DNA of 64,000 nucleotides from Giardia intestinalis (lineage: Eukaryota), in NCBI GenBank assembly GCA_000002435.2, contig CM018793.1; one strand, given 5' to 3'. Every line of letters starts with the position of its first letter. Within the stretch, counting starts at the first letter, position 1. Below are positions 17,679 through 32,305 of this stretch, one piece after another. Both the position numbers and the translations under genes were made by a program. A model generated the notes under the pieces. The model was not told the origin of the DNA. It searched no databases and saw only the letters and a program-made list of their open reading frames with translations.

Positions 17679-20600
17679 TCACATCGACGTAAGAAAATCG
17701 ACGAGGTCTTCCGAATCTACCGAACACCTTACCATATTGGCAAAGATACTGTCAGGCTTGTGAAACAGCACGCGCGGAGGACCCTGCTCGACTATTTGAC
17801 CACCGGCCATAACAATAACCCTATCCTGGTTGCAAACAGTGCGGAGTCTATGGGCTATCGTAATAATGATCTTTTGCTCCTTATATGCCCCCAGGGCATC
17901 CTGGATAGCCGTCTCTGCGGCACTATCCACGTGTGCTGTTACCTCGTCCAATAGGATGACTTCTGTGTCTCTGAGCAGCGCGTGGGCTACGCACAGAAGC
18001 TGTCGCTGTCCGAGCGAAAGGTTGCTGCCGTTATCAAAAAGGTGGTAGTCAAGTTGCTTTGACTGAGCTCGAAGTATTCACGCAAGTGCGTCTTCTCCAA
18101 GACACGCCACAGCTCCTCATCTGAGAACCGTCTATCCCCGGAGAGATAGGCTCGCAGTGTCCCGGAGAAAATAAAAGGATCCTGTGGTATCAGCGTCACC
18201 TTAGACCGTGCCTGATGTAAGCCCATCTTCAGCAGGTTCAGGCCATTCAAGAGAATCTCAGACCCGCCTCTGGCTCGACAAGTCTGAGAATCGCATTGAC
18301 AAGGGATGACTTGCCAGACCCTGTCTTTCCTATGATTGCAACGCGCTCTCCCTTGCCGCTGTGAATGAGATCCCATGAAGCACAACTGGCAAATGCTGTT
18401 GATAGCGTAGCGAAAGATCTTGCACAATAAGCCCGAGAGTAGAGTCTGCCGGCAGCTACTTGGGCTATGCGGAGCGCTTGTACTCTCTGGTTCAAGAGTA
18501 GCGTACTCTGCTACCCTTCCACGCTGGCCATAGAAAGATCCATTGCAACAATCCCGAAGCACATATCTATTAACATCATGACAACATCAAAGCCATTCAT
18601 GAGTACGGTACCTGAAAATATCTCTCCGTTAGCAAAAGAAGACGTTATGATAGTGGACACAGTAACTACTGCGGACACACAGATAGATAGAAGGGTAGTT
18701 GTAAAGTGTAGCCATCTGTAGAGGGAAACATCCATCCAAAATGCCGCCTCCATAGCTAGGACGGCTCTGGCGTAGTAGCTTGCCGCCTGGGCTTCATACC
18801 TATACGCTCTAAGAGATGCCAGGTTGTAGTATGTGTCTAGAATAAAGTTACACACATGGCTATTCAAGAGGGAGGTGGTGCGTCGCAAGAGGGGCGACAC
18901 AGCACGAAATCCCATGAACATCCAAAGGAACAGTCCCAGCAAGGGAACTAGCACAAACGTAGATGGCCAGCTCATCAGCAAAGTGGCCAGTAATGAACCC
19001 AGCACAAAGATGGAGTTCTCACATGTCGCTGCTAGGCCATTCTTCACCGTCAAATCACATGTACCTGTGTCTGCTATCAGGCGGTTAAGGATCCGTCCAA
19101 TGGGGTGTGCGTCATAGAACGACATCGATGTATTGATAAGCCCCTCTTCCATGCTGTAGTACAGCTTCTCTGCCGCCTTCCGTGTGAACAGCATATAGAA
19201 GAGCTGCCCAACGAAGAGGATCACCATAAATGCAAAGGAGAACGACAAGAACAGACCTATGCAACCACCTGTGCTCAGCCCTAGCCGCTGTCGGTCCAGA
19301 AGTTGATGAGCAGCGACGCCAGTTGCAACATAAGTATACAGAAGACCCACATGACAACATAAATGACGAATTCCAGGTCCCGCCTGCCTTGAACCATAGC
19401 TTGTAATATTTAGAATTAACAGATCCCAGCTCCGTGCATTCTCCTCCTTAAGCACTGCTGCCATTCGATGCACTTGATAGTCAGAGTCGTGTTTCTCTAC
19501 AGCCTGTATAGAGGTTAGTGAGGGACTTCTGCGACGGGCAGAGGAGAACAGTCTATATCTACGCTCTCTGGTGTCACTTCTTTGATCGTGCCAGCATCTA
19601 TAAATAGCACCTTTAAGCACGAACGAAAGTAATGCATCTGATTGGTCGCCAACACAACGGTCTTCCCCCTTGCAAGTAGATACCCTTTGATGGTCTCGCT
19701 CCATAACGACTTGCAAACATGAGAGTCCAGAGAGGCGAACGGATCATCAAACAAGTAAATATCCGCGTCGGAGTAGATGGCCCTGGCAATTGATAATCGA
19801 GCTTTCTGTCCTCCAGACAGTGTCACACCGCGGCTGCCAACAAGTGTGGCAAGCCCCCCTGGTAGTTCAGAAAGGTCCCCATCCAGACAGGAGAGCCGAG
19901 TTGCAAGCTGCATTTTCTCTTCATCATAGGGTAAGAATAACTGGATATTGAACTGTATGGTCCCTGTAACACGGACGGCACCTGCGAGCAGTATGCAATA
20001 CGGCCCACCGAGTGTATATGAGCGGAATCCGAACTACTTGATGTCGAAAGGGCCACCTCTCCCAGAATAGCCAATAGGAGCTCGACTTCCCGGAGCCAAC
20101 ACAGCCCCCCACCCCAACCAGGCACCCCCTAGGAATACTAAACTGCAAGGATCTAAGAACTGGCACGCACTCTGTCTCTAATTCGCGTACGGAAGACTGA
20201 AGTACGGTAATCTGCCTATGCATGGCTGCTAGCTCAACATAGTACTTCCTTAATCTGTCAGTTTGAGAGGAGCACCTGGAGGCATCAGGCGTTGCCGGCT
20301 GGGGCTTTGGAAGTAGGAGTCCATCGGGGGCATGGGGCTCGTCGCCCCTAGGAGAACCAGCGGCTGCCAGGGACGGCGTCTCGATCGGACCGTCCATTCC
20401 GCACCTACCAGCACATCTTCAGGAGCCTCTTCTCGAGTGCATTGTATGCGCCGAGCAGTTTAGAGCCGCCCTCATGGACAGCAATCTTCTGTTCCTGGCT
20501 TGTAAGATTGCTGTTAGAATTGAAAGAAGAGGGTATGTGTCTGTGGCACTGTCTCCCCCACGAATAACTCGGGTTGCCCACTGTCCATATAACAAACTGA

Positions 20601-21866
20601 GCCGCTGTGGAGTCGTTCTTTTCATGGAGCTTCCCACAATAATCGCCCTCGGGCAGAGTAAGAACCTGCCTCGCTCTGTGGCAGCTGACAATTGCAGAAC
20701 TCAATGAAGAGATCAAGTACGGTAAATCGATAATGACGCGAGCAAATATAGTGAATAGATACGCAGCCGTATAGGCGTGGCCGTGTAAGGTGCCCGCTTA
20801 GCACTGACAAGAAGGCACAGAGAAGCATGGCGGGCCAAGTCATGTAGCCCACCAAGTGGATGCATGATCGCGCAAGGGTCATCCTTCCCACGTATATGAG
20901 CTCTTGACGCCTACGTGGGTGCATTCGACTCCTGCACAGCTCCTGATAATTATAGGCCTTTATCACCCGTAGCCCTGCTATTACTTCGGTGACATGCCGT
21001 GCACGGACATCGCGCGCAGCAGCATATCGTTTTTCCAGAAAGAGATTGTACAGGGTCAGGAGACTAATGAAGGGGAGCGTAACGAGGATGCCCCCAAATC
21101 CAGCAAGAGCACTCCTATCAATTTGAAAAACCAGGAATAAAACAATCATCAACAACTTAAGTGGCACCGCTATCATCCTTGGTATGTTCGACACTAGATT
21201 AGAAATGGAGCGGGCATCACCACTAATGAAAGTAATCACCGCCGGAGATAAAACGTGCGTCGCTGCAACATTGGGAATGCGTATGAGCTTCTTGTACAAT
21301 AGCATCGAGATGGCCTGGGACACACGGATGCTCTGCTCAGCACAGATTGTTGATGCAATGGACTGGAAAAACGCCGTCAAAAGCTGTGCAACAAGGTTAA
21401 TAACTATCCATACCCATGCCTCGCGGAATAAGCCAACAAGCACACTGCTACTAGAGTCGCGGAGGTCAGCTATATGACCAGTATCTAAGACCTTAAGGAG
21501 CTCTGTCATAGTCTTTGGTTGCACAAAAGAAAGAAATACAGCAAGTCCCATTAGTATGGAAGACACAGCAAAGAAGGGCCAGCTCGTCTTCATGACTAGA
21601 GAGCCGATTCGGGCGGGTCTAGCAGTTGCCCGTGCCACCGCCAAAGTGCCTTCCAGCTTAGTCAAGACCTTACCATAATTCATGTTTGTTGGCAGAGAAG
21701 GAATGTCTGATGGTTTTAATACCCTCTGCTTTCTCGCTCTTGCCACGAATGGTGTCATCCATAGAAATGTATAGTAGAGGATGAATGGGCAGCGCTCGCT
21801 CTGCGGCCGTGCACTGGGAAACGCAGTAAACTCGTAGCTCTCATATCGCTCAGCCCTATCTGCCAT
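17679..21866 (-). pseudogene. ABCC/MRP-type full-length ABC transporter (TMD1-NBD1-TMD2-NBD2) disrupted by at least 8 frameshifts/stops; pseudogene or locally error-laden sequence
   Basis: Collinear fragments on the minus strand, in order from N- to C-terminus:
- 20622..21866: MRP-like N-terminus RCPFILYYTFLWMTPFV plus TMD1.
- 19924..20397: NBD1 Walker A, GCLVGVGGCVGSGKSS.
- 19823..20125: SLLLAILGEV…GRIAYCSQVP, the Q-loop region.
- 19515..19913: [35 protein letters not shown], i.e. signature, Walker B and D-loop.
- 18511..19716: TMD2.
- 18247..18495: NBD2 Walker A, VAIIGKTGSGKSSLVNAILRLVEPEAG.
- 17987..18562: ILLNGLNLLKMGLHQARSKVTLIPQDPFIFSGTLRAYL.
- 17679..17951, extended upstream in frame: [45 protein letters not shown]…IIITIAHRLRTV, i.e. 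signature, Walker B, D-loop and H-loop.
Every junction requires a +/-1 frame change. The one near 18075 is a 1-nt indel next to AGTCAAAGC. Confidence 0.7.
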
Positions 21867-22035: not shown

Positions 22036-25000
22036 ATGGGGGACAGAAACCTGGACTGGAACCGGACGACCGCCCCGCTCCCGTTCGTGTGGTCGGACAT
22101 GGAGCCGGCGATCTACGAGCTCAGCGAGTCGTTCCTCCCCGTGGACCTGTCCGCCTCCCACCTCGCGCTGGGCAGGTCGTCGTTCCTCTCGCTCTTCGAG
22201 GACGAGCTGGGCGCCGACGAGGCGAGGCGGGGCTACGACGGGCTTCTGCCGGAGAGGCCGGGACCCTGCACCCTGGCGGCCTCGCCCCTGCCGGCCAAGC
22301 GGGCGCACGTGAGCTCCCTACTGGCGGAGGCCAGGCGCGGCGCATTCGAGTCCCAGCTGGAGCGGAGCGTCCTGCCCAGCTCCACCGTCTTCGCGCGCCT
22401 GGAGCAGGCCCTCCAGCGACCCCCGGAGGGCAGCAAGGCGGCGCTCCAGGCGGCCCTGTTCTACGTGCTCGGCCTCCGCATAAGCTGCGCCCTGCCCCTC
22501 CCCCTGGACCCCGACACCGTGGTGAAGCGGGCGCTCCTCCTCTTCCTCCACAACGGCGGCTCCTTTTTCAGGCAGGTCCTCAAGCGGTTCGGCGTCCTCG
22601 CCGGCGAGTGCGCGGTCTCCCTCTCGGACTTGAGGGCGGAGTCGACGCAGAACGCAAGCAAGCAGCTCCCGCCTCCCCTGACCCACTGCATCCAGGTCCT
22701 GCATCTTGTGCTGACCTCCCTGAACCTGCGGGGGGTCACCGTCTTCGAGCACACCGTCTACGATCGCCTGGACGGCTCAGTCGACTGCTCGCCCTACCTC
22801 CACACCTTCGAAGGCTTCGTCAGGGCTCTGGTCCACCCCCTTGCGCTCCTACTCTCCAAGCTGATCCAGGCAGACGCAGGCCCGCACAACAACACCTTCA
22901 ACAACGCGATCGCCCGCTGCGTGGCTTGCTGCCGCCCGGTGGCCCTGCTGAGACAGGCGCTCCTCCTCCTCCTGGGCCCGCTGGGCGACCACAAGCAGGC
23001 CCGGAAGTGCCGGAGCATCCGCAGGATGGCCCTGGAGGAGCAGGGCAGCGCCGGGTCTTGCGCGATCAAGACCGTCAAGCGGCTTCCGCCCCCGCGCTTC
23101 CGTGGCTACGTCAACCCCACATCCTCGTCTGTCGCGGCCCTGCTGCGGTTCTTCGAGGGCTCGTTCAGGCCGAAGGACACCCCCTTCTCGTCCGGCAACG
23201 TCTCCCCCTACGCCGATAAAGGCGTCGCAGACCAGATGGCAGAGTGTGCAAGCGTCATTACGGCCTTCAACGCCCGCCAGCCCAACAGGCGGCGCCCGGG
23301 GCTCTTCCCGGGGCTCGCAGAGGAGTACGCCAACCGGAGGGACGAGGCCGCGCTAGGCCTCTTCCAGCTGCTCCCCAGGCCGGACGTGCGGATCGGCCTG
23401 CAGTCCCTGGCAGACCTCCACGGCGGGTACATGGCCATGCGGTACAGCTGCGACGCCAGAGAGTCAGTCATGTCGCGCTCCCAGGAGACCTCTGTCGGCG
23501 GCCGGAGCGACCTGGACGGCGGGTACGACGCCGAGCTGGAGCGCACCCTCGGCAACGTGGTGGTCACCAGCGACTACCGCATGTACCTCAACAGGGTCAA
23601 GCGGGGGCTGACCGCGTCCTTCCCGTTCTCGGGGAGGCCGGTTGCGAAGGGCAATCTGCCCTACTTCGAGCGGTGCATAGAGAAGGTGCTGTCCTTCAAC
23701 TACCACGAGGAGCGGTTCCGCAGCATCAAATACCACGAGCTGGTCAACGTGCTCACCTACGCGCTTCCCCTGGACGTCCAGCGGGCGATGCTCGTCAGCA
23801 TTTCCAACGAGGCCGACTGCGTCCTGGAGCACCAGTTCTACCACCTGATCCGAGAGGTCGACATGCCGGCGTTCCTCTCGTCGCTGCTCCGCCTGGCGCT
23901 GTGCGGGGTCCCCCACATGCTCGAGACGGTCCTGTCGGCCAAGGCGACTGCGGGCACGACGAAGGACGCTGAGAAGGGCGCGTTCTCCAACAACACCCCG
24001 TCGTCCACGCGGCACGTCCGGGAGTCTGTGCTGAAGAGCTGCCTCCACGTCCTTCTCCTCCTGCAGGCGAAGGCCCGCCAGGTCCACCCGAGCGTGGGCC
24101 TTTTCGTCTCCAGCATAATACAGCGGTGCAACGGTCAGGGGTGCGGGCTCGACGCCGTCATCGCCACCATGTGCCTGCCTGCGGCCGCGTACATAACGGG
24201 CGTGGACCCGCGGACCGCCGCGCTGGGCACGTGCCTTTTCCTCCCCGGCCAGGCCGCGGACGCGCTCGCTCCGGACGAGCGGGTGGCCGACGCAGGCGAG
24301 TTCCTCCAGGCCAGGCCCGCCAAGCAGGGCGCCCCGCCGGACCCGGCGCTAGACCCCGCGAGGCCCCTCCACAGCATGGCGAGCGGCAGGCGGCTGTTCT
24401 GCCTGCTGACGGCGTCGCGCTGCTTCTACGGCTACATCTCGCACTCCGCGTCCCGGGCCCAGGAGGCCCTCGCCCTCTACTCGAAGGTGAGCGCCAATTA
24501 CATCTCGTACATCCTGCAGTCCTCCAGCACGGCGGCCAGCCAGGGGTCTGCCGCTGCCGCCGCAAGCCAGGCCCTTCCAGACAACCTCAGCCAGACGACC
24601 GTCTTCACCAGGGGCGCCCTGCAGCGCAAGGCAGGGGCCGCGGCGCAGAGCGTCCCGGGCGGGGGCTCCAGGCCGCCGATGGCGTACATCCCGAACAACC
24701 TGGCCAACCTGATGGAGTTCCTGCGCGGAGACAATAGCACCAACAACCCCGCCAACATAAACACGGCGGGCACGCTCACGTGCAACTTCCCGGGGTACCA
24801 GCTGTCCAAGGTCAACAACCTTTCGTCCATCGTCGTGCTTCTGAAGATCGCCAAGCACATACTGCCCTTCGCGGCGGGGGACTACTCGCGCATATACGGG
24901 GTGTTCGAGCTGCAGGGCCTCCCCGCCTTCCGCGAGTACCTGACGAAGCTCATCTACCAGCTCTCCATAAGCCCGTGCAGCGAGGACAGCTGGCGCTGGA

Positions 25001-25224
25001 CGAGGGACGTCGTCGCGAAGAACGCGGCGATCTTCGCAGAGTTCGAGCGCGCCGCCTTAATAGCCTTCACCGAGAAGTACCTCCTGCCCGACCGCCACCC
25101 GTCGCTGGCCCACTACGGGTGGCTCTACGAGAGCAGCCTGCCCGACGCCCCGGAGCAGTACGCGGCGGAGGAGGCCGTTGCGCTCTCCCAGCTCCACGCG
25201 GGATGGCCCTGTAACCGCATCTGA
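22036..25224 (+). CDS. Large hypothetical protein (1062 aa) encoded in a very GC-rich (about 68% GC) segment
   Basis: Uninterrupted 3.2-kb ORF with an ATG after CAAAA. The amino-acid composition is diverse (F/Y/W/N/H present, not merely Ala/Pro/Arg), which argues for genuine coding. All other frames over this span carry long stop-free ORFs purely because of GC richness. No motif recognised. Confidence 0.6.
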   Translation: MGDRNLDWNRTTAPLPFVWSDMEPAIYELSESFLPVDLSASHLALGRSSFLSLFEDELGADEARRGYDGLLPERPGPCTLAASPLPAKRAHVSSLLAEARRGAFESQLERSVLPSSTVFARLEQALQRPPEGSKAALQAALFYVLGLRISCALPLPLDPDTVVKRALLLFLHNGGSFFRQVLKRFGVLAGECAVSLSDLRAESTQNASKQLPPPLTHCIQVLHLVLTSLNLRGVTVFEHTVYDRLDGSVDCSPYLHTFEGFVRALVHPLALLLSKLIQADAGPHNNTFNNAIARCVACCRPVALLRQALLLLLGPLGDHKQARKCRSIRRMALEEQGSAGSCAIKTVKRLPPPRFRGYVNPTSSSVAALLRFFEGSFRPKDTPFSSGNVSPYADKGVADQMAECASVITAFNARQPNRRRPGLFPGLAEEYANRRDEAALGLFQLLPRPDVRIGLQSLADLHGGYMAMRYSCDARESVMSRSQETSVGGRSDLDGGYDAELERTLGNVVVTSDYRMYLNRVKRGLTASFPFSGRPVAKGNLPYFERCIEKVLSFNYHEERFRSIKYHELVNVLTYALPLDVQRAMLVSISNEADCVLEHQFYHLIREVDMPAFLSSLLRLALCGVPHMLETVLSAKATAGTTKDAEKGAFSNNTPSSTRHVRESVLKSCLHVLLLLQAKARQVHPSVGLFVSSIIQRCNGQGCGLDAVIATMCLPAAAYITGVDPRTAALGTCLFLPGQAADALAPDERVADAGEFLQARPAKQGAPPDPALDPARPLHSMASGRRLFCLLTASRCFYGYISHSASRAQEALALYSKVSANYISYILQSSSTAASQGSAAAAASQALPDNLSQTTVFTRGALQRKAGAAAQSVPGGGSRPPMAYIPNNLANLMEFLRGDNSTNNPANINTAGTLTCNFPGYQLSKVNNLSSIVVLLKIAKHILPFAAGDYSRIYGVFELQGLPAFREYLTKLIYQLSISPCSEDSWRWTRDVVAKNAAIFAEFERAALIAFTEKYLLPDRHPSLAHYGWLYESSLPDAPEQYAAEEAVALSQLHAGWPCNRI

Positions 25225-25556: not shown

Positions 25557-26315
25557 TTACTTGAAGACCTCCATGAACTCCTCAACTGGCTTATTGCAAG
25601 CAGGACAGACCTTGCTGGCCACGTCCTTCCCGCAGTCCTTGCAGAGGACGTAGTGCTTGCACGGCATGCAGACCAGGTTGGGGGCGTTGGCGCGGCACTT
25701 CACGCACTTCGTGTACTTCTTCGAGTTGAGGAGCTTGCGGATCTCGCCCAGGCACTTCTCGAGGGACTTGTTCAGCTGCTCCTCCGAGATCTCCGCCCCC
25801 TGGTCGATCCCCGAGCAGGAGAGGAAGTAGAACGCCTCGAAGAACGAGCGGAAGATGGCCATGTTGTGGCTCTTGACCTCGGCCTGCTGCGACTTCTTGG
25901 CCATCTCGGTGTAGGTGGCCGCGACCCTCTGCCGGAGCTGCTCCAGCATCGCCGCGTCCATCGTCTCGATGGTCTTCAGCCGGAGGACCTTGGCCGCCTC
26001 GAACTGCTTCGCCCTGGAGGCGTGGTTGAGGGCGGAGAGCTTGCCGGCGTCCCGCAGCCTCCCCTCCTTCTCGAAAAGGGCCTGGATCAGCTCGAGGTTC
26101 CCCCTCTTTGCCGCCGCGATCAGCGCGAAGGACCCGTCGTTCGAGACCAGGCCCGCCTCTGCGTCGACCAGCTCCAGGGCGACGGCGGTGTGCCCGGCCT
26201 CGGCGGCCCACATGAGCGCCGTCTTCCCGTCTGCGTCCCTCTGGCCTGCGTCCGCGGCCTTGTGGGCCCTGACGTAGTCCAGCCTGTTCTCCTTGGCCGC
26301 CTCAATAAGTGCCAT
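25557..26315 (-). CDS. Ankyrin-repeat protein with a C-terminal C3HC4 RING finger (putative E3 ubiquitin ligase)
   Basis: N-terminal ankyrin repeats (GKTALMWAAEAGHTAVALELV; GSFALIAAAKRGNLELIQAL) are followed by a C-terminal CVKCRANAPNLVCMPCKHYVLCKDCGKDVASKVCPACNKPV, whose Cys/His spacing fits a RING finger. True ATG. Confidence 0.65.
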   Translation of the reverse strand: MALIEAAKENRLDYVRAHKAADAGQRDADGKTALMWAAEAGHTAVALELVDAEAGLVSNDGSFALIAAAKRGNLELIQALFEKEGRLRDAGKLSALNHASRAKQFEAAKVLRLKTIETMDAAMLEQLRQRVAATYTEMAKKSQQAEVKSHNMAIFRSFFEAFYFLSCSGIDQGAEISEEQLNKSLEKCLGEIRKLLNSKKYTKCVKCRANAPNLVCMPCKHYVLCKDCGKDVASKVCPACNKPVEEFMEVFK

Positions 26316-26477
26316 TCTTTGCCTCCCAATTGCGATCGCGGCTCTTCATAAGACATATTGATAGAAAACTTGGAGACGTTGTTTCATGGCACTTTGGCAC
26401 GGACCGGAAGCATGGGGCGCTGGTCCGTAAGGCCTGTTCTCCAGGGCCTTCTGCTTCTCGTGAAGGGAACGACGGGT

Positions 26478-28584
26478 TTACTCGTGAGATCGTGGAGCAG
26501 CTTGGCGGCTGTTGCGACCACCGAGGCCCGGTATACGGCTGTCCCTAAGGAAAGATGCTATCTCAGAGTAGCCCTTGGCCTCAAGCTTATCAAAGAGGGA
26601 TTCGTCAGACTTGTCTATTAGATGCCCCTCCTTTTCAAATAGCAGCTTCACTATCTCTAAGCGGCCGCCATACGCTGCGTGCGTGATAGCGGGTAAGCCA
26701 TGGGGATCCAGCATGCAGCCTTCGCGCTCCATCAACAGCTGCACTACTTCTGCATGATTCTCAGAGGCAGCCTTCATGAGGGCGGTCGCATTACAAGTAT
26801 TCCCTGGGCCACTCTCATATTGCATTAGCAGTTGTACTGCTGCTACGTGGCCGCATACTGCTGCTTGTATTAGCGCCGTCCCAGTATGTGTCCATCGCTT
26901 CTTCTGAATGGGTATAAGTGCGCTTACTGCTAATGTGTCGCTTATTTTTGCGGCTCGCATGAGCGCTGTGACGCCCCTATCATCGGTTGGGTCGAGAACC
27001 TCCACTACGTTTTCGTGTCCTGCCTCTGCCGCAAGGATCCGAGCCGTCTTGCCTTGTCTGTCGGTCAGGTCCTCCTCGTACGGAGCCAGAACAGAAGCAG
27101 CCTCCGCATGGCCCTCCTGTGCAGCAATCATCAGAGCAGTACGGCCGTTCTTGCTCTTCCTCCCATGCTCATGAGGGATGAGAATCCTAGCTACCTCAGG
27201 ATGGTTCCCGTGTGCGGCGTGCATGAGCGCGGTCCAGCCGTTTTTATCTTTGATACCCTTCTCCTTCTCAACAAGCAGCTCAACAGGCCCACCGTGCCCC
27301 TGCTGGGCCGCGTGCATGAGGGCCGTCATCCCCCGCTTGTCGCGCTGGCCGATACAATCTTTCTCGTTGGCCAGCATCCGGACGGTCTCCATGTCATTCG
27401 TGTGTGCAGCATATATTAGTTTGAACAAGGAGAGGTCCGTCTGGGTGCCAACCACTTTCATTTCACTATTGGATTGTGTAAACTTATCCTCCAGTGCTTT
27501 TATCCGGCCTTCAAGCGTGCCAATCCCGGTGGTCTTAACTCTGGGTTCTTGCCCCAAGGCGTTGGCTTCACTTGGCCTGCTCTCAAGAGCGCCCTTGAAA
27601 GAGGCAGTCTCAGCAGACTTGGCGTCGAGGACTGCCTCAAGAATAGCAATCCTAGCATTAGCATTATTCAGAGCAGTCTTCAGGGAGCCGCATTCGTACT
27701 TCAGCACCGCATATTGAGCCCCCAGCTCACTAACTGGGATGTCGAATGTAGCGAGCGTCTCATGCAGCTCCCTGGCCGTCGGCCTCCTCTCTGGCTCTAG
27801 TACAAAGATCCTCTCCAGAACATTCTGCATGAAGCCATCAGTGATGCCACTCAGGTCCGGCCTCCACCCATCGACGAAGACCTCTGCCGGCTCCTTGCCC
27901 CCCAAGAAGTCCGGTCTCCTCAAAGTAGTAAGCTCGTAGACGATGGCCCCGAGGTTCCACATGTCGGAGGCGGGGCTGGCCTCGTTGCGGAGGAGCACCT
28001 CGGGGGCCACGTATGCCATTATTCCCATGAGAGTGCTCCCACTCCACAGGGCGTCCTTGCAGAGGCCGAGGCCAGTGATGACGAAGTGTTCACCATCTGC
28101 GCTGATAAGGACGTTGGCAGGCCTGAGGTCACAGTGGACAAGTCTCTCGGTATCTGCCCCACTGGCCCCGTAGAGGTAGGCGAGGGCGGCGGCGACCTGC
28201 CTCAGGACGGAGAGAATCACAGCGATAGGGACGAGAGTCTTCCTTCGTTTGTGCTCGGTGAGGAGGTGCTCAAGGGTCTTGTCTTGGCGATCCGTAACGA
28301 CGTAGATGAGGCCTTCGTCCTCGACCACTTGATGGTGCTTGAGGACTCCTGGATGGGAGAGGTCGGGGAGGGCGGTCAGCCCACGCTTTAGCATCCACAC
28401 CGTGCTGACCCAGACCGTCGAGCCGGATCTCCTTCACAGTGAGGTAGGGGTATCCCCTGAGAGAGTAGACTGTTCCCGCGGCACTTTCACTAAGCACATC
28501 ATCCAGCCCCTCGTAGAGCTCCCTGGGGGTGAACTGCGGGGCACTGAGAGCCACCGTTGCAGACCCAGACGAGGCGGCGTACAT
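26478..28584 (-). pseudogene. NEK-type protein kinase with a C-terminal ankyrin-repeat array, interrupted by a single frameshift between kinase subdomains II and IV (pseudogene or indel error)
   Basis: The upstream ORF 28270..28584 has a true ATG, an AT-rich initiator, and the kinase N-lobe GTVYSLRGYPYLTVKEIRLDG (Gly-loop and VAVK-Lys region). The 640-aa ORF 26478..28400 begins at a GTG and starts mid-kinase (…LSHPGVLKHHQ…LIYVVTD…HCDLRPANVLIS…GIMAYVAPEVL), then continues into a coiled coil and at least 6 ankyrin repeats (GMTALMHAAQQGH…). The two frames overlap at 28270..28443, and the +/-1 shift lies within about 28395..28443. Confidence 0.65.
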
Positions 28585-28885
28585 CTTGGTTTCATTTTGG
28601 TAATCTACCGTTTTGGAAACGATCCGTTTTACATGGGTTCATATCTACAGGTCTACAGCAGTCCCGTGCCTGTAGGGGCTTCTGCATAAGAGATGAGAAG
28701 GCCACCTGTGCGACCATTTCACCCACCGGTGTCCCAGTGCTGACCGAGGGTGAGAAGGCCTGCTCCCCCTAGCCTCTGTGGAAACGGGTGGTTGTGTGCC
28801 TCACTGACAGCCACCACTTCATTAGGGTGTCTGTTCGCTGCACAACTGGAGGGAGATTCTATCCACCGCCGGATGCAACCAACAG

Positions 28886-29557
28886 TTAGGCGCGTTCACT
28901 CATGGACTTTCTGGGCGGCATCCGTAGCCGGGGCTCCGTCAGTCCAATACCCTCACTCTCAAGAAGGGACACCACCTCGGAATGACCCTCCATATCAGCT
29001 ACACAAAGAGCAGACTCCCCGCCTATGTCCTTCTCCTTCTCTAGTAGCAACTTAACACAATCTAGACGACCAAAGTATGCTGCAGCTGTGAGGGCGGTAA
29101 AGTCTTTGTCCTTCGTCATGCCTCCCTCAACATCCAGGAGTAACTTCACTACCTCGGTGCGACCGTTTGCTGCTGCCCACATGAGGGCCGTCAAGTCGTT
29201 GCTGCTCCTCATACCGCCTTCGCACCTCATCAGCAGCTTTACCGTCTCAACGTGTCCAAGCACTGCGGCGACCATCAGGGCCGTCCCGTCGTATATCTCT
29301 ACCATCCCTGCCGTAACAAACCTCGCCACCATCCTTGCTTGATAATGGATGTAGCGCTTCACCGCGTCCACGTCGTTCCTCTTAGCTGCCTCCATAAGTG
29401 TGGTGACGCCATCCTCGTCCACGCTGCCTTCATCATCCATTTCTGAAGGCTCAGTTGGGTTTCCTGCGCCCTCTTCGCTCGTGTCCTTCTCTGGTGCGAG
29501 GGGCGGGGTGTCGTCGTGCTCCTGAGAGCAGTGATCCGAATCATCTGCAGACGACAT
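28886..29557 (-). CDS. Ankyrin-repeat protein (Giardia 'protein 21.1'-like)
   Basis: Four to five ankyrin repeats (TTLMEAAKRNDVDAVKRYI; TALMVAAVLGHVETVKLLM; LTALMWAAANGRTEVVKLLL; TALTAAAYFGRLDCVKLLL; ESALCVADMEGHSEVVSLL). The track ORF begins at 29785, but an internal ATG at 29557 (MSSADDSDHC…) carries the canonical initiator GGAATAAAA-ATG. The upstream 76 aa lack protein-like character. Confidence 0.55.
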   Translation of the reverse strand: MSSADDSDHCSQEHDDTPPLAPEKDTSEEGAGNPTEPSEMDDEGSVDEDGVTTLMEAAKRNDVDAVKRYIHYQARMVARFVTAGMVEIYDGTALMVAAVLGHVETVKLLMRCEGGMRSSNDLTALMWAAANGRTEVVKLLLDVEGGMTKDKDFTALTAAAYFGRLDCVKLLLEKEKDIGGESALCVADMEGHSEVVSLLESEGIGLTEPRLRMPPRKSMSERA

Positions 29558-30646
29558 TTTTATTCCATGGCCACAAAGGAAACGCATGTACTGGTAAACT
29601 TGCGATTCACGGTATTGTTTACAGATCATCCAGATAGCGCACCAAACATGAACTGCATGCCCTGGGTTCCCTCTGCCCTTCTTGCCTTGTGTGGTAAGTG
29701 CCCAATGAGAGATGACTTCAATTGTGGAGTTGTAGTCTGCTGGGCACCAGTGCAGGGTGGGCACTAGAGCTTCGGACTTCTTCATTCCACCTACCAGTCA
29801 CCTTCAGCGTTGTGCTGCTAGGACCCTTGCCCACGAGCACACCCCAAGGATCCCGGGAGTAACTTCAGTCAATGCTCGATTGTGTCCGGAAACAGAAGCG
29901 AGTCGTGGTTAATAGAACAAGGGCTTCTCCGTTGCACTGCTGGAGGCCTGACTATCTTATCACCACCTTCTTTCTGCCGGGCCTCTGCTTCAAAAACCCA
30001 CCGTGATGTCGGGGAAGAAGCCTGACAGCCTGTAGTAAAACAGCTCCTGTGAACCGTAGACGTTGGGGATCCTCTTGGCCACCATCCATGCACATCGGCA
30101 AGGCCCTCTGACGTTCCCAGGGCCCAGCAGCTCGCCATGACTGGAGAGGAGGGCTTACTGGGTCCTGAGCAGCAGTGATTATGAATTCCTACTATCAAGC
30201 TTCCCTCTCCACAGTCTTGGAGCCGTTGAGATAGCCTCAGCAGATCATCGAAGAAGAGCATAAGCTCTGGCACTGCATCGGCAAGCTCTGGGGACTTCGC
30301 CTTCCCTTGCTGCAGGTCTTCAGGAGCAGTCTAGAGCTGTGGCTAGATGACTGCGTTGTTACTGCCTGGAGTGCCTACTCAATGGGCCTCTCGAAGGCAG
30401 GTTGCTAGACAGCAGCAGTGGCAAGTGTCGATCACAGATACTCTGTCCGCCACTTGTGGAGGCTTATCTCCATTTAGGTTTCCTTCTCATCCTTGCAGTG
30501 CTCACTCGAGCGAACCAGAGCCTGAGATTGATAAGCCCAGCGAGCCTAGTACAAACCTCAGAGGACTCAGGAGGTCATGGCTCCCTGGTGATTGCCATGT
30601 CGTTCTCCTCGCTCGGTTGACATGCACCCTGCTAGAGGGCCCTCAT

Positions 30647-32305
30647 TTACTCGAGCTCGTACATCCGCGCCGTGGTGATCTCTAAGAGCTCGGTTGTGAG
30701 CATGTTGGCCTTAACCCACGAGACGAAGGCGCTCTTGCAGTACGCCTCAAACGCCGCCTTCTGCTCGGCTGTCAACGAGGGATCCCGTATCTTCCTACCA
30801 AGCACGGTCAGCTTTTCAGACCTCTCCTTCATGGTCTGCCGGAAGACCGAGGGCAGAATGATCGGCAGCGCTTTGGTCTTTCCCGTCAGAAGCTTCGAGT
30901 CGAACGGGACCACCGCGGTGCAGTACGTCTTTGGATCCATGAATATCAGATTCTCACACACTCCCAGCCCCAGTGGGCTGTAGAGCTTCATCCCAAAGCT
31001 CTCGCCCTGCTGGCAGATGTCCGCTAGTCCTTGCTGCTGCAGGCAATCCTCCAGTGAGGGGAATATGTAATTGTAGGGGGCAATCTTATTCGTCTTTGTG
31101 TTGCTGTCATGCACACAGGAGTTCCGACTGGTGACATACATCAGACAGTTCTCAATGGTATTTGCCTTGAAGAAGTCCGCTACGGCAGAGAAGGTCATAC
31201 GCATGCAGTAGCACATGGAGACGGTCCCCGCCACGGTCCCCAGGACGATCTTTACGTTTCTGCAGTTGGCAATGACGACGTGTGAGCAGGGAGCAATCAG
31301 AAATATGGTGCAGTTGGCGCAGTTGGCAATGACAGCTGTGGGGGGTCTATGGGTAGCGGCAGCGAAGACCCCTATCCCTGCCTTGGAAAGGCTTCTGATG
31401 CGAATGTGGTTATAGCGATCATCATACTCATATGTGGGGATCCCCGATGCAGACGTACCTGGACGAGCCTGCGGGCATCCTGACGCCAGTGCTGGGCTAG
31501 CAGGGGCACTTAGCTGCGCCTTGGCTTCCAGTGTCGGCGTCGACAAGGTTCCCGAGGTACTTAAGACGTTAGACGAAGAAGACGACAGCTGAGGCTGATA
31601 GGAGCGAATAGGATCGGGAGCTGATGAAAATACAATATTTGCACAGTCGTACGTCGTGATGTTAAAGAAGCGAGAAATAGAGCTTGCTACAGTAAGAACT
31701 GGATCACCAATAGAAATCTCGAAAAATGCACAGAATGAGTCAACGAAATCTTCCTGCTGACTTGTCTCTGCCTGAAGCAATATATCCAGGCCTTCGATAG
31801 CATCCTTCGTCAGCGCAATATCAGCTCCATTGATAGATCCTGCTTGTACAGCTTCAGGGGTAAGGCAGAGCGCAGCAATGAGGATGTTGACATTGAGTGA
31901 AAAGTAGCTTTTTATCAGCGAGTCCAGATCTTCCCCGTTCATGCTCAATGGCCACGCATCATCCGTGGCCATGGCAGACTTCTTTGAGAGCATGGAGTGT
32001 CTAAATATCACGGAAAAGAGAAATACAATGAATCTGTGAACTGTGGGAAGACTGCGAATAACACCTCGAATCCCGCAAGCAAGCGTCGCCTCGAACAAAT
32101 TATAGATCATTGCAATCTCTTGTTCCTTAAGCCCGCAGCAGTCTGCGCCGACTTTTTGCCAGAGGGCAAAGGTCATCTTGTTCTGAAATTCGGTTGCACC
32201 CGTCAGACAAAGGGCTGCGATGCTTGCAAAGTTATCTAATGAGAGCCGGGACTTACTGCTGATGTTGAACAGGGTGAGGAAGATGACCTCTTCACGAAGC
32301 CGCAT
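30647..32305 (-). CDS. TBCC-domain (tubulin-binding cofactor C / CARP beta-helix) protein, TBCCD1-like
   Basis: Central repeats TAVIANCANCTIFLIAPCSHVVIANCRNVKIVLGTVAGTVSMCYC match the TBCC/RP2 beta-helix repeat (x-N-C-x-N-C-x-I-x-L). 552 aa, true ATG. Confidence 0.5.
   Translation of the reverse strand: MRLREEVIFLTLFNISSKSRLSLDNFASIAALCLTGATEFQNKMTFALWQKVGADCCGLKEQEIAMIYNLFEATLACGIRGVIRSLPTVHRFIVFLFSVIFRHSMLSKKSAMATDDAWPLSMNGEDLDSLIKSYFSLNVNILIAALCLTPEAVQAGSINGADIALTKDAIEGLDILLQAETSQQEDFVDSFCAFFEISIGDPVLTVASSISRFFNITTYDCANIVFSSAPDPIRSYQPQLSSSSSNVLSTSGTLSTPTLEAKAQLSAPASPALASGCPQARPGTSASGIPTYEYDDRYNHIRIRSLSKAGIGVFAAATHRPPTAVIANCANCTIFLIAPCSHVVIANCRNVKIVLGTVAGTVSMCYCMRMTFSAVADFFKANTIENCLMYVTSRNSCVHDSNTKTNKIAPYNYIFPSLEDCLQQQGLADICQQGESFGMKLYSPLGLGVCENLIFMDPKTYCTAVVPFDSKLLTGKTKALPIILPSVFRQTMKERSEKLTVLGRKIRDPSLTAEQKAAFEAYCKSAFVSWVKANMLTTELLEITTARMYELE

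Follow-up and report, generated by a model that had tools for sequence, protein, structure and literature searches.

A 2-nt deletion between the beta-3 strand and helix alpha-C in GL50803_42657, an ankyrin-repeat Nek-GL4 pseudokinase gene of Giardia intestinalis

The Neks of Giardia form a family in which critical catalytic residues have been lost in all but 56 of 198 members, and TALM ankyrin repeats are absent from the core (non-Nek) kinases of the organism (Manning et al. 2011, Genome Biol 12:R66). The same study listed 30 kinase pseudogenes of strain WB, extended from fragmentary predictions, 29 of which are assigned to the Nek-GL4 group. Nek-GL4 is peculiar to Giardia and turns over rapidly, and its genes encode a kinase-like domain at the N-terminus, followed by a linker and TALM ankyrin repeats. 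GL50803_42657 (GK092; row G103 of Table S1) was there classed as Nek-GL4 with orthology class 'C', was credited with nine Ank repeats, and was described as a frameshifted pseudogene, with the reconstruction MYAASSGSATVALSAPQFTPRELYEGLDDVLSESAAGTVYSLRGYPYLTVKEIRLDGLGQHGVDAxLKRGLTALPDLSHPGVLKHH... (Manning et al. 2011, Genome Biol 12:R66). The 638-aa 3' ORF continues to be presented in the reference annotation (KAE8305550.1 / XP_001706022.1) as a regular 'Kinase, NEK', and expression, ChIP, and SNP studies go on listing the gene as a Nek kinase. In common with canonical NEK (NIMA-related) kinases, the locus encodes the Pkinase fold, its assignment to the Nek family being that of Manning et al. 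Unlike them, it lacks the DFG Asp and the alpha-C Glu, has a degenerate Gly-loop, and carries TALM ankyrin repeats.

The DNA analysed here, referred to as the window, is a 64,000-nt stretch of the G. intestinalis contig CM018793.1 (assembly GCA_000002435.2). A minus-strand 640-aa ORF in the window is 100% identical, in both protein search and tblastn, to the 638-aa protein KAE8305550.1 (P0001; XP_001706022.1; UniProt A8BN42) of Giardia intestinalis ATCC 50803 / WB clone C6, whose gene resides on a 4,018,654-bp scaffold. The annotated CDS (26478..28394, minus strand; 638 aa) begins with an internal Met located within the alpha-C region. Judged from this identity, the locus is GL50803_42657, a NEK-ankyrin pseudokinase gene with a frameshift. 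Both flanking genes are exact WB models: a 252-aa RING-ankyrin ORF (25557..26315) corresponds exactly in sequence to KAE8305549.1 / XP_037902296.1 ('Ankyrin repeat protein 2'), and a 299-aa ankyrin ORF (28886..29785, minus strand) to the earlier model XP_001706021.1 ('Protein 21.1'). On re-annotation the start codon of the latter was shifted, and the newer model, XP_001706021.2 / KAE8305551.1 ('Ankyrin repeat protein 1'), has only 223 aa. The best protein matches of the window gene are all Giardia NEKs, with 58–78% identity over the full length, and Nek-GL4 membership is apparent from the clustering, the combination of an N-terminal kinase with TALM ankyrin repeats, and the strain-variable copy. 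Among the intact GL4 paralogues, P0011 (KAE8306053.1, 697 aa, WB), P0003 (ESU35023.1, 696 aa, DH), and P0002 (KAE8301251.1, WB) are colinear with GL50803_42657 from Met1 to the C-terminal ...APRSHE, with an identical domain order, and remain in frame at the junction where the window gene is broken.

The gene is divided between two frames of the minus strand. Frame A extends from an ATG at 28584 to a stop at 28272-28270 (104 aa in the ORF list). Frame B, following a TGA at 28436-28434, is open from 28433 to a stop at 26480-26478, with its first ATG at 28394. The first 65 codons of frame A (28390..28584), delimited by tblastn with P0011, P0003, and a further paralogue (P0019) and by alignment, constitute an in-frame remnant of the kinase N-lobe, and include the start Met, the sequence SESAAGTVY at 28491-28465, and the beta-3 strand LTVKEI with its Lys at 28443-28426, ending in ...GVDA. 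The 39 codons that follow, with the stop (28270..28389, ORF list), form a P/R-rich out-of-frame tail (KAWADRPPRPLPSRS...; tail peptide of the frame-A product, AWADRPPRPLPSR...), which is the frame-A reading of DNA coding in frame B, and tblastn revealed no paralogue match in frame A beyond 28390. The rest of the kinase domain is encoded in frame B at 27765..28388, as defined by alignment and by the Pfam Pkinase match at residues 10-212 of the 640-aa ORF, and contains KRGLTAL (a remnant of alpha-C), SHPGVLKHH, HCDLRPAN (28136-28113), TGLG (28076-28065), and APE (28007-27999). This match scores 82.1 bits (cut-off, 31.7), but begins only at position 51 of the 263 in the profile, showing that the N-lobe is missing. 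The kinase portion is followed by a linker (27420..27764), the length of which varies among paralogues and for which a weak Pfam Cast match (residues 240-337) and no predicted coiled coil were obtained; a coiled coil within the linker is plausible. The TALM-type ankyrin array (26600..27419) is identified by Pfam Ank_2 (1.4e-48), by other Ank models, and by the positions of seven TALM/TALI/TARI motifs, which start at residues 359, 390, 421, 452, 478, 508, and 539 of the 640-aa ORF with a spacing of 26-31 residues.

The kinase nature of the upstream piece was established through the intact paralogues. Residues 1-65 of P0011 matched 28584..28390 in frame -2 with 77% identity (tblastn E, 2.5e-23), and residues 67-697 matched 28388..26481 in frame -3. 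The same frame switch was found with P0003, P0019, and P0002, the identity of residues 1-65 of P0011, P0003, and P0019 to 28584..28390 ranging from 57 to 77% in tblastn. As residues 36-275 of P0011 align to positions 12-258 of the Pfam Pkinase profile, the upstream piece corresponds by homology to the Gly-loop/beta-3 part of a kinase N-lobe, and on these alignments its match to the N-lobe is far above chance. In the repaired kinase domain, the Pkinase match begins at profile position 44, little earlier than the 51 of the unrepaired ORF, so that recognition of the upstream piece as a kinase derives from the homology to P0011 and not from Pfam directly. The 104-aa ORF by itself gave no Pfam match and no match in a homology search, although tblastn reveals clear homologues; the empty search is attributed to a limit of word-index searching and is not counted as evidence. 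These results agree with the initial annotation in that the ORF at 28270..28584 encodes an N-lobe with the beta-3 Lys before entering a nonsense frame, homology to P0011 extending to 28390 only, and in that the kinase resumes in another frame together with an ankyrin array, as seen from the Pkinase and Ank models in the 640-aa ORF. The Gly-loop region it had named is present, but the motif itself (SESAAGTVY) is degenerate, and the possibility it had raised that the upstream ORF is unrelated to kinases is contradicted by the P0011 homology.

The junction was resolved by aligning the window DNA with two loci of isolate DH, L001 (AHGT01000107, gene P0003) and L002 (AHGT01000038, gene P0004). In both alignments a 2-nt gap is present in the window only (GTGGATGCTA--AAGCGTGGGCTGACC versus ...CCATCAGAC... 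and ...CCATTAGAC...); paralogue homology confines the break to 28393-28379, and the tblastn frame switch falls between 28390 and 28388. The DH paralogue DNAs, together with the related GL4 sequences that read GVDAIK at the junction in Table S1 of Manning et al. (2011, Genome Biol 12:R66), identify GCT ATC AAG as the ancestral state. The lesion (28389..28390, minus strand) is the loss of 'TC' from the Ile codon, converting GCT ATC AAG into GCT A AAG, and the window accordingly reads GCTAAAG where the intact form would read GCTATCAAG. Re-insertion of TC produced a single ORF of 702 aa (...GLGQHGVDAIKRGLTALPDLSHPGVLKHH...) that is colinear with the 696-698-aa paralogues and gapless at the junction. 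The break separates subdomain II (beta-3 Lys) from helix alpha-C, lies outside any homopolymer run, and is the only lesion, with no second one in the 2.1 kb. The lesion, its position, and its uniqueness to this copy are results of the present analysis, as is the family membership described above; the pseudogene as such was already published in 2011 and is here traced to the loss of 2 nt at 28390/28389 (ATC to A), the 'x' in row G103 having been set one residue earlier in the junction of the same locus. A single +/-1 event within 28395-28443, restoring a NEK of about 700 aa, had been proposed in the initial annotation. A single frameshift, separating the beta-3 Lys strand from the HPGVLKHH strand, and the restored protein were borne out, the same fusion having been published by Manning et al. 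in 2011, but the event is a deletion of 2 nt, and its site lies five bases 3' of the proposed interval, yet still within the wider region (28270-28443) to which the break had been assigned.

In the protein encoded by GL50803_42657, the beta-3 Lys (LTVKEI) is present, though in the detached upstream ORF, and the HRD-type Asp is kept (HCDLRPAN). The DFG motif is replaced by TGLG, with no Asp, and the Glu found in alpha-C of the paralogues (IRLELATL) is replaced by Gly. The K, D, D set taken by Manning et al. as the criterion for an active kinase is thus incomplete, the DFG Asp being absent. The GLG replacement is shared with the closest relatives, P0002 and P0003, while P0011 keeps DFG. The absence of the DFG Asp and the alpha-C Glu, together with the GLG common to P0002 and P0003, indicates that the ancestor was already a pseudokinase. 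Even a repaired protein would, from its residues, still be a pseudokinase, and phosphorylation by it is not expected.

The ARP-1 / NEK / ARP-2 block containing the locus (25601..30660) represents a duplicated unit of ~5 kb, with a nucleotide identity of 87% to L002 and 81% to L001. These DH loci were considered as positional orthologues and rejected, owing to this degree of identity and to the homology ceasing at the edges of the ~5-kb unit, and no positional orthologue by which to date the deletion was found in another isolate. Additional NEK + ARP-2 pairs (KAE8301231/32 and KAE8301250/51) occur on a 1.49-Mb WB scaffold. L002 has the same gene order, ARP-1 / NEK / ARP-2, as the window, but its NEK gene (P0004; ESU36827.1) is interrupted at a different position by a separate 1-nt deletion after ...STLYSLK (L002 9795..10080, AHGT01000038.1), which detaches the first ~43 codons, frame 0 stopping after 49. 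The deposited 648-aa P0004 model begins downstream of this break and carries no pseudogene flag. In WB, another Nek-GL4 pseudogene of the same architecture, GL50803_137735, bears a leading stop and is frameshifted after ...FHP, independently of the lesion in GL50803_42657. The separate lesion of L002 in the same domain indicates that such decay is routine in Nek-GL4, and N-lobe frameshifts that arose independently in sister copies are consistent with birth-and-death turnover. Measured against L001, dN/dS was 0.33 in the N-lobe piece, 0.35 in the remaining kinase domain, and 0.62 in the ankyrin array. With a single lesion, and with similar dN/dS values in both halves of the kinase and no extra decay in the N-lobe, the deletion looks recent. 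Also in comparison with L001, the ankyrin array (26481..27419) has a dS of 0.18, far below the 0.45-0.70 of the kinase and linker, a difference suggestive of gene conversion between copies or of a mosaic history.

Upstream of the ATG at 28584, a putative promoter (28585..28680, minus strand) was located by a motif scan and as a block conserved in the DH paralogues. It contains three Myb2-like motifs, CTACAG at 28675-28670 and CTGTAG at 28658-28653 and 28650-28645, which are positioned 66-91 nt upstream of the ATG, and the A-rich stretch CCAAAATGAAACCAAG directly precedes the ATG; this region may have served as the promoter of the original gene. By contrast with this arrangement, no Myb2-like motifs were detected by the scan near the ATG at 28394, the bases just before it are G+C-rich (cagcacggtgtggATG), and three AUGs would be met before it on a transcript begun at the native start. 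In Giardia, mRNA leaders are as a rule very short, and translation begins at the first AUG. Given these features, the 104-aa peptide is predicted to be the main product, and the 638-aa protein would be poorly made, if at all. As a separate observation, residues 1-49 of the P0002 model (805 aa) match 28676..28822 (minus strand), the non-coding 5' flank of the window gene, in a third frame with 80% identity. The true Met of P0002 (MHAASSGS...) probably lies downstream of the modelled start, the model being over-extended, and the putative promoter region is conserved between the copies.

Pseudogene status, transcription, and Myb2 binding are taken from the literature. GL50803_42657 is a GlMyb2 ChIP-seq target (4.6-fold; Myb2 site, 'Yes'), the transcript of which was tracked by qPCR during encystation (PMC9547401), and a non-synonymous SNP (R578H) in the gene was recorded in metronidazole-resistant lines by a transcriptomics study (PMC5355454). 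In our judgement, a recent and real pseudogenising 2-bp deletion in a fast-turnover Nek-GL4 gene is very probably the correct explanation of the locus. The deletion falls in the loop that connects the beta-3 Lys strand to helix alpha-C and moved the reading frame by +1, so that a transcript from the native promoter would give a 104-aa product consisting of 65 N-lobe residues and a 39-residue nonsense tail, and the remaining 638 codons would be deprived of their natural start. Since the ancestor was already a pseudokinase, what was lost would have been a scaffold protein and not an enzyme. The significance of such a loss extends little beyond annotation hygiene, the locus being a further example of Nek-GL4 birth-and-death turnover (Manning et al. 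2011).

Against pseudogenisation stands the downstream ORF of 1.9 kb, which is fully open, is kept as protein-coding in the reference, and has detected transcripts. It is conceivable, though unlikely, that the deletion is real and the intact 638-aa ORF is translated from ATG 28394, through an internal transcription start or reinitiation, to work as a pseudokinase/ankyrin scaffold devoid of the N-lobe. The promoter-like elements lie upstream of the ATG at 28584 instead, and the G+C-rich bases and three earlier AUGs before 28394, combined with the short leaders and first-AUG initiation general in Giardia, disfavour translation from that codon. The pseudogene class assigned by Manning et al. (2011) is likewise in conflict with a working truncated gene, even if the catalytically dead ancestor means that loss of the N-lobe may have cost little, and many 21.1/ARP proteins of Giardia are ankyrin arrays without a kinase domain (Manning et al. 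2011). Less probable again, and in our estimate improbable, is that the frameshifted copy remains under a Myb2-responsive promoter in encystation and yields a functional product, for which there would be three candidates: the 104-aa N-lobe fragment with its P/R-rich tail, an ankyrin scaffold that starts at ATG 28394 and lacks the N-lobe, or a full-length pseudokinase produced by +1 frameshifting. If true, GL4 'pseudogenes' would be a reservoir of new ankyrin-scaffold proteins.

We consider it very improbable that the real gene is an intact 702-aa NEK and that the frameshift arose as an artefact of sequencing or assembly or is restricted to some allelic copies. A multi-copy family with paralogous units 81-87% identical does complicate assembly, and look-ups with exact products (the 638-aa CDS, P0001, and the 252-aa ARP-2) returned no contigs in other assemblies. 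Nevertheless, Manning et al. (2011, Genome Biol 12:R66) saw the same break in the sequence of GiardiaDB release 2.3, and it recurs in the window, whose models match the 2020 annotation. The 2020 WB assembly was built from PacBio reads, polished with Quiver, and then corrected for indels with 100x Illumina reads, a correction aimed at gene-truncating PacBio homopolymer errors that fixed 85 indels in 38 genes; a 2-nt gap off homopolymers is unlike this type of error. Furthermore, no protein from any other isolate with more than 78% identity was present in a collection of 5.8 billion proteins, and a search with the first 198 residues of the repaired protein, a weak test for an intact allele, gave no fragment above 74% identity. 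A genuine lesion is therefore favoured by the agreement of GiardiaDB 2.3 with the matching 2020 models, by the Illumina-corrected assembly, and by the non-homopolymer gap.

There is hardly any chance that the two ORFs are joined at expression, by programmed +1 frameshifting (for example, tRNA-Lys moving from AAA to AAG at GCU-AAA-GCG), a tiny intron, or RNA editing: the required shift is indeed +1, the context at 28389-28386 is A-AAG, and the product would read ...GVDAKRGLTAL... (junction peptide, GVDAKRGLTALPDLSHPGVLK), one residue shorter than the paralogues, but the junction has no stop, obvious pause codon, or known shifty heptamer, frame A continues for 39 codons, and all compared paralogues are in frame, so that the site is not conserved. 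Programmed ribosomal frameshifting was rejected for these reasons and for the lack of an Rfam element, no family having been matched in the whole window. An intron was likewise rejected, because the sole frame-restoring GT..AG pair spans 13 nt, which is too short for an intron, and no Giardia-type splice motifs were seen. The 29 other GL4 copies, a figure from Manning et al. (2011), are plain pseudogenes.

The initial annotation had also counted the locus, together with an ABC locus in the same window, as the second frameshifted gene in or next to a G+C-rich island. The ABC transporter gene (17679..21866, minus strand) is in fact split over at least six ORFs. Pfam identifies two ABC_membrane pieces, of 414 aa (20622..21866) and 401 aa (18511..19716), and NBD fragments lie at 19924..20397 (Walker A-like GSGKS), 19515..19913 (LSGGQ and Walker B), 17987..18562, and 17679..17951, all on the minus strand, such that Walker A, signature/Walker B, and H-loop-like motifs are in separate ORFs. 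From this arrangement the ABC locus looks like a multiply disrupted pseudogene and is not comparable to the single frameshift of the NEK gene. No mechanistic link of either the ABC or the NEK lesion to the G+C-rich gene was found. That gene (22036..25224, plus strand) is a 1062-aa ORF without a Pfam match, with 67-69% G+C as compared with 45-50% in its flanks. Long shadow ORFs are numerous in its remaining frames and on the opposite strand, as a consequence of the G+C content.
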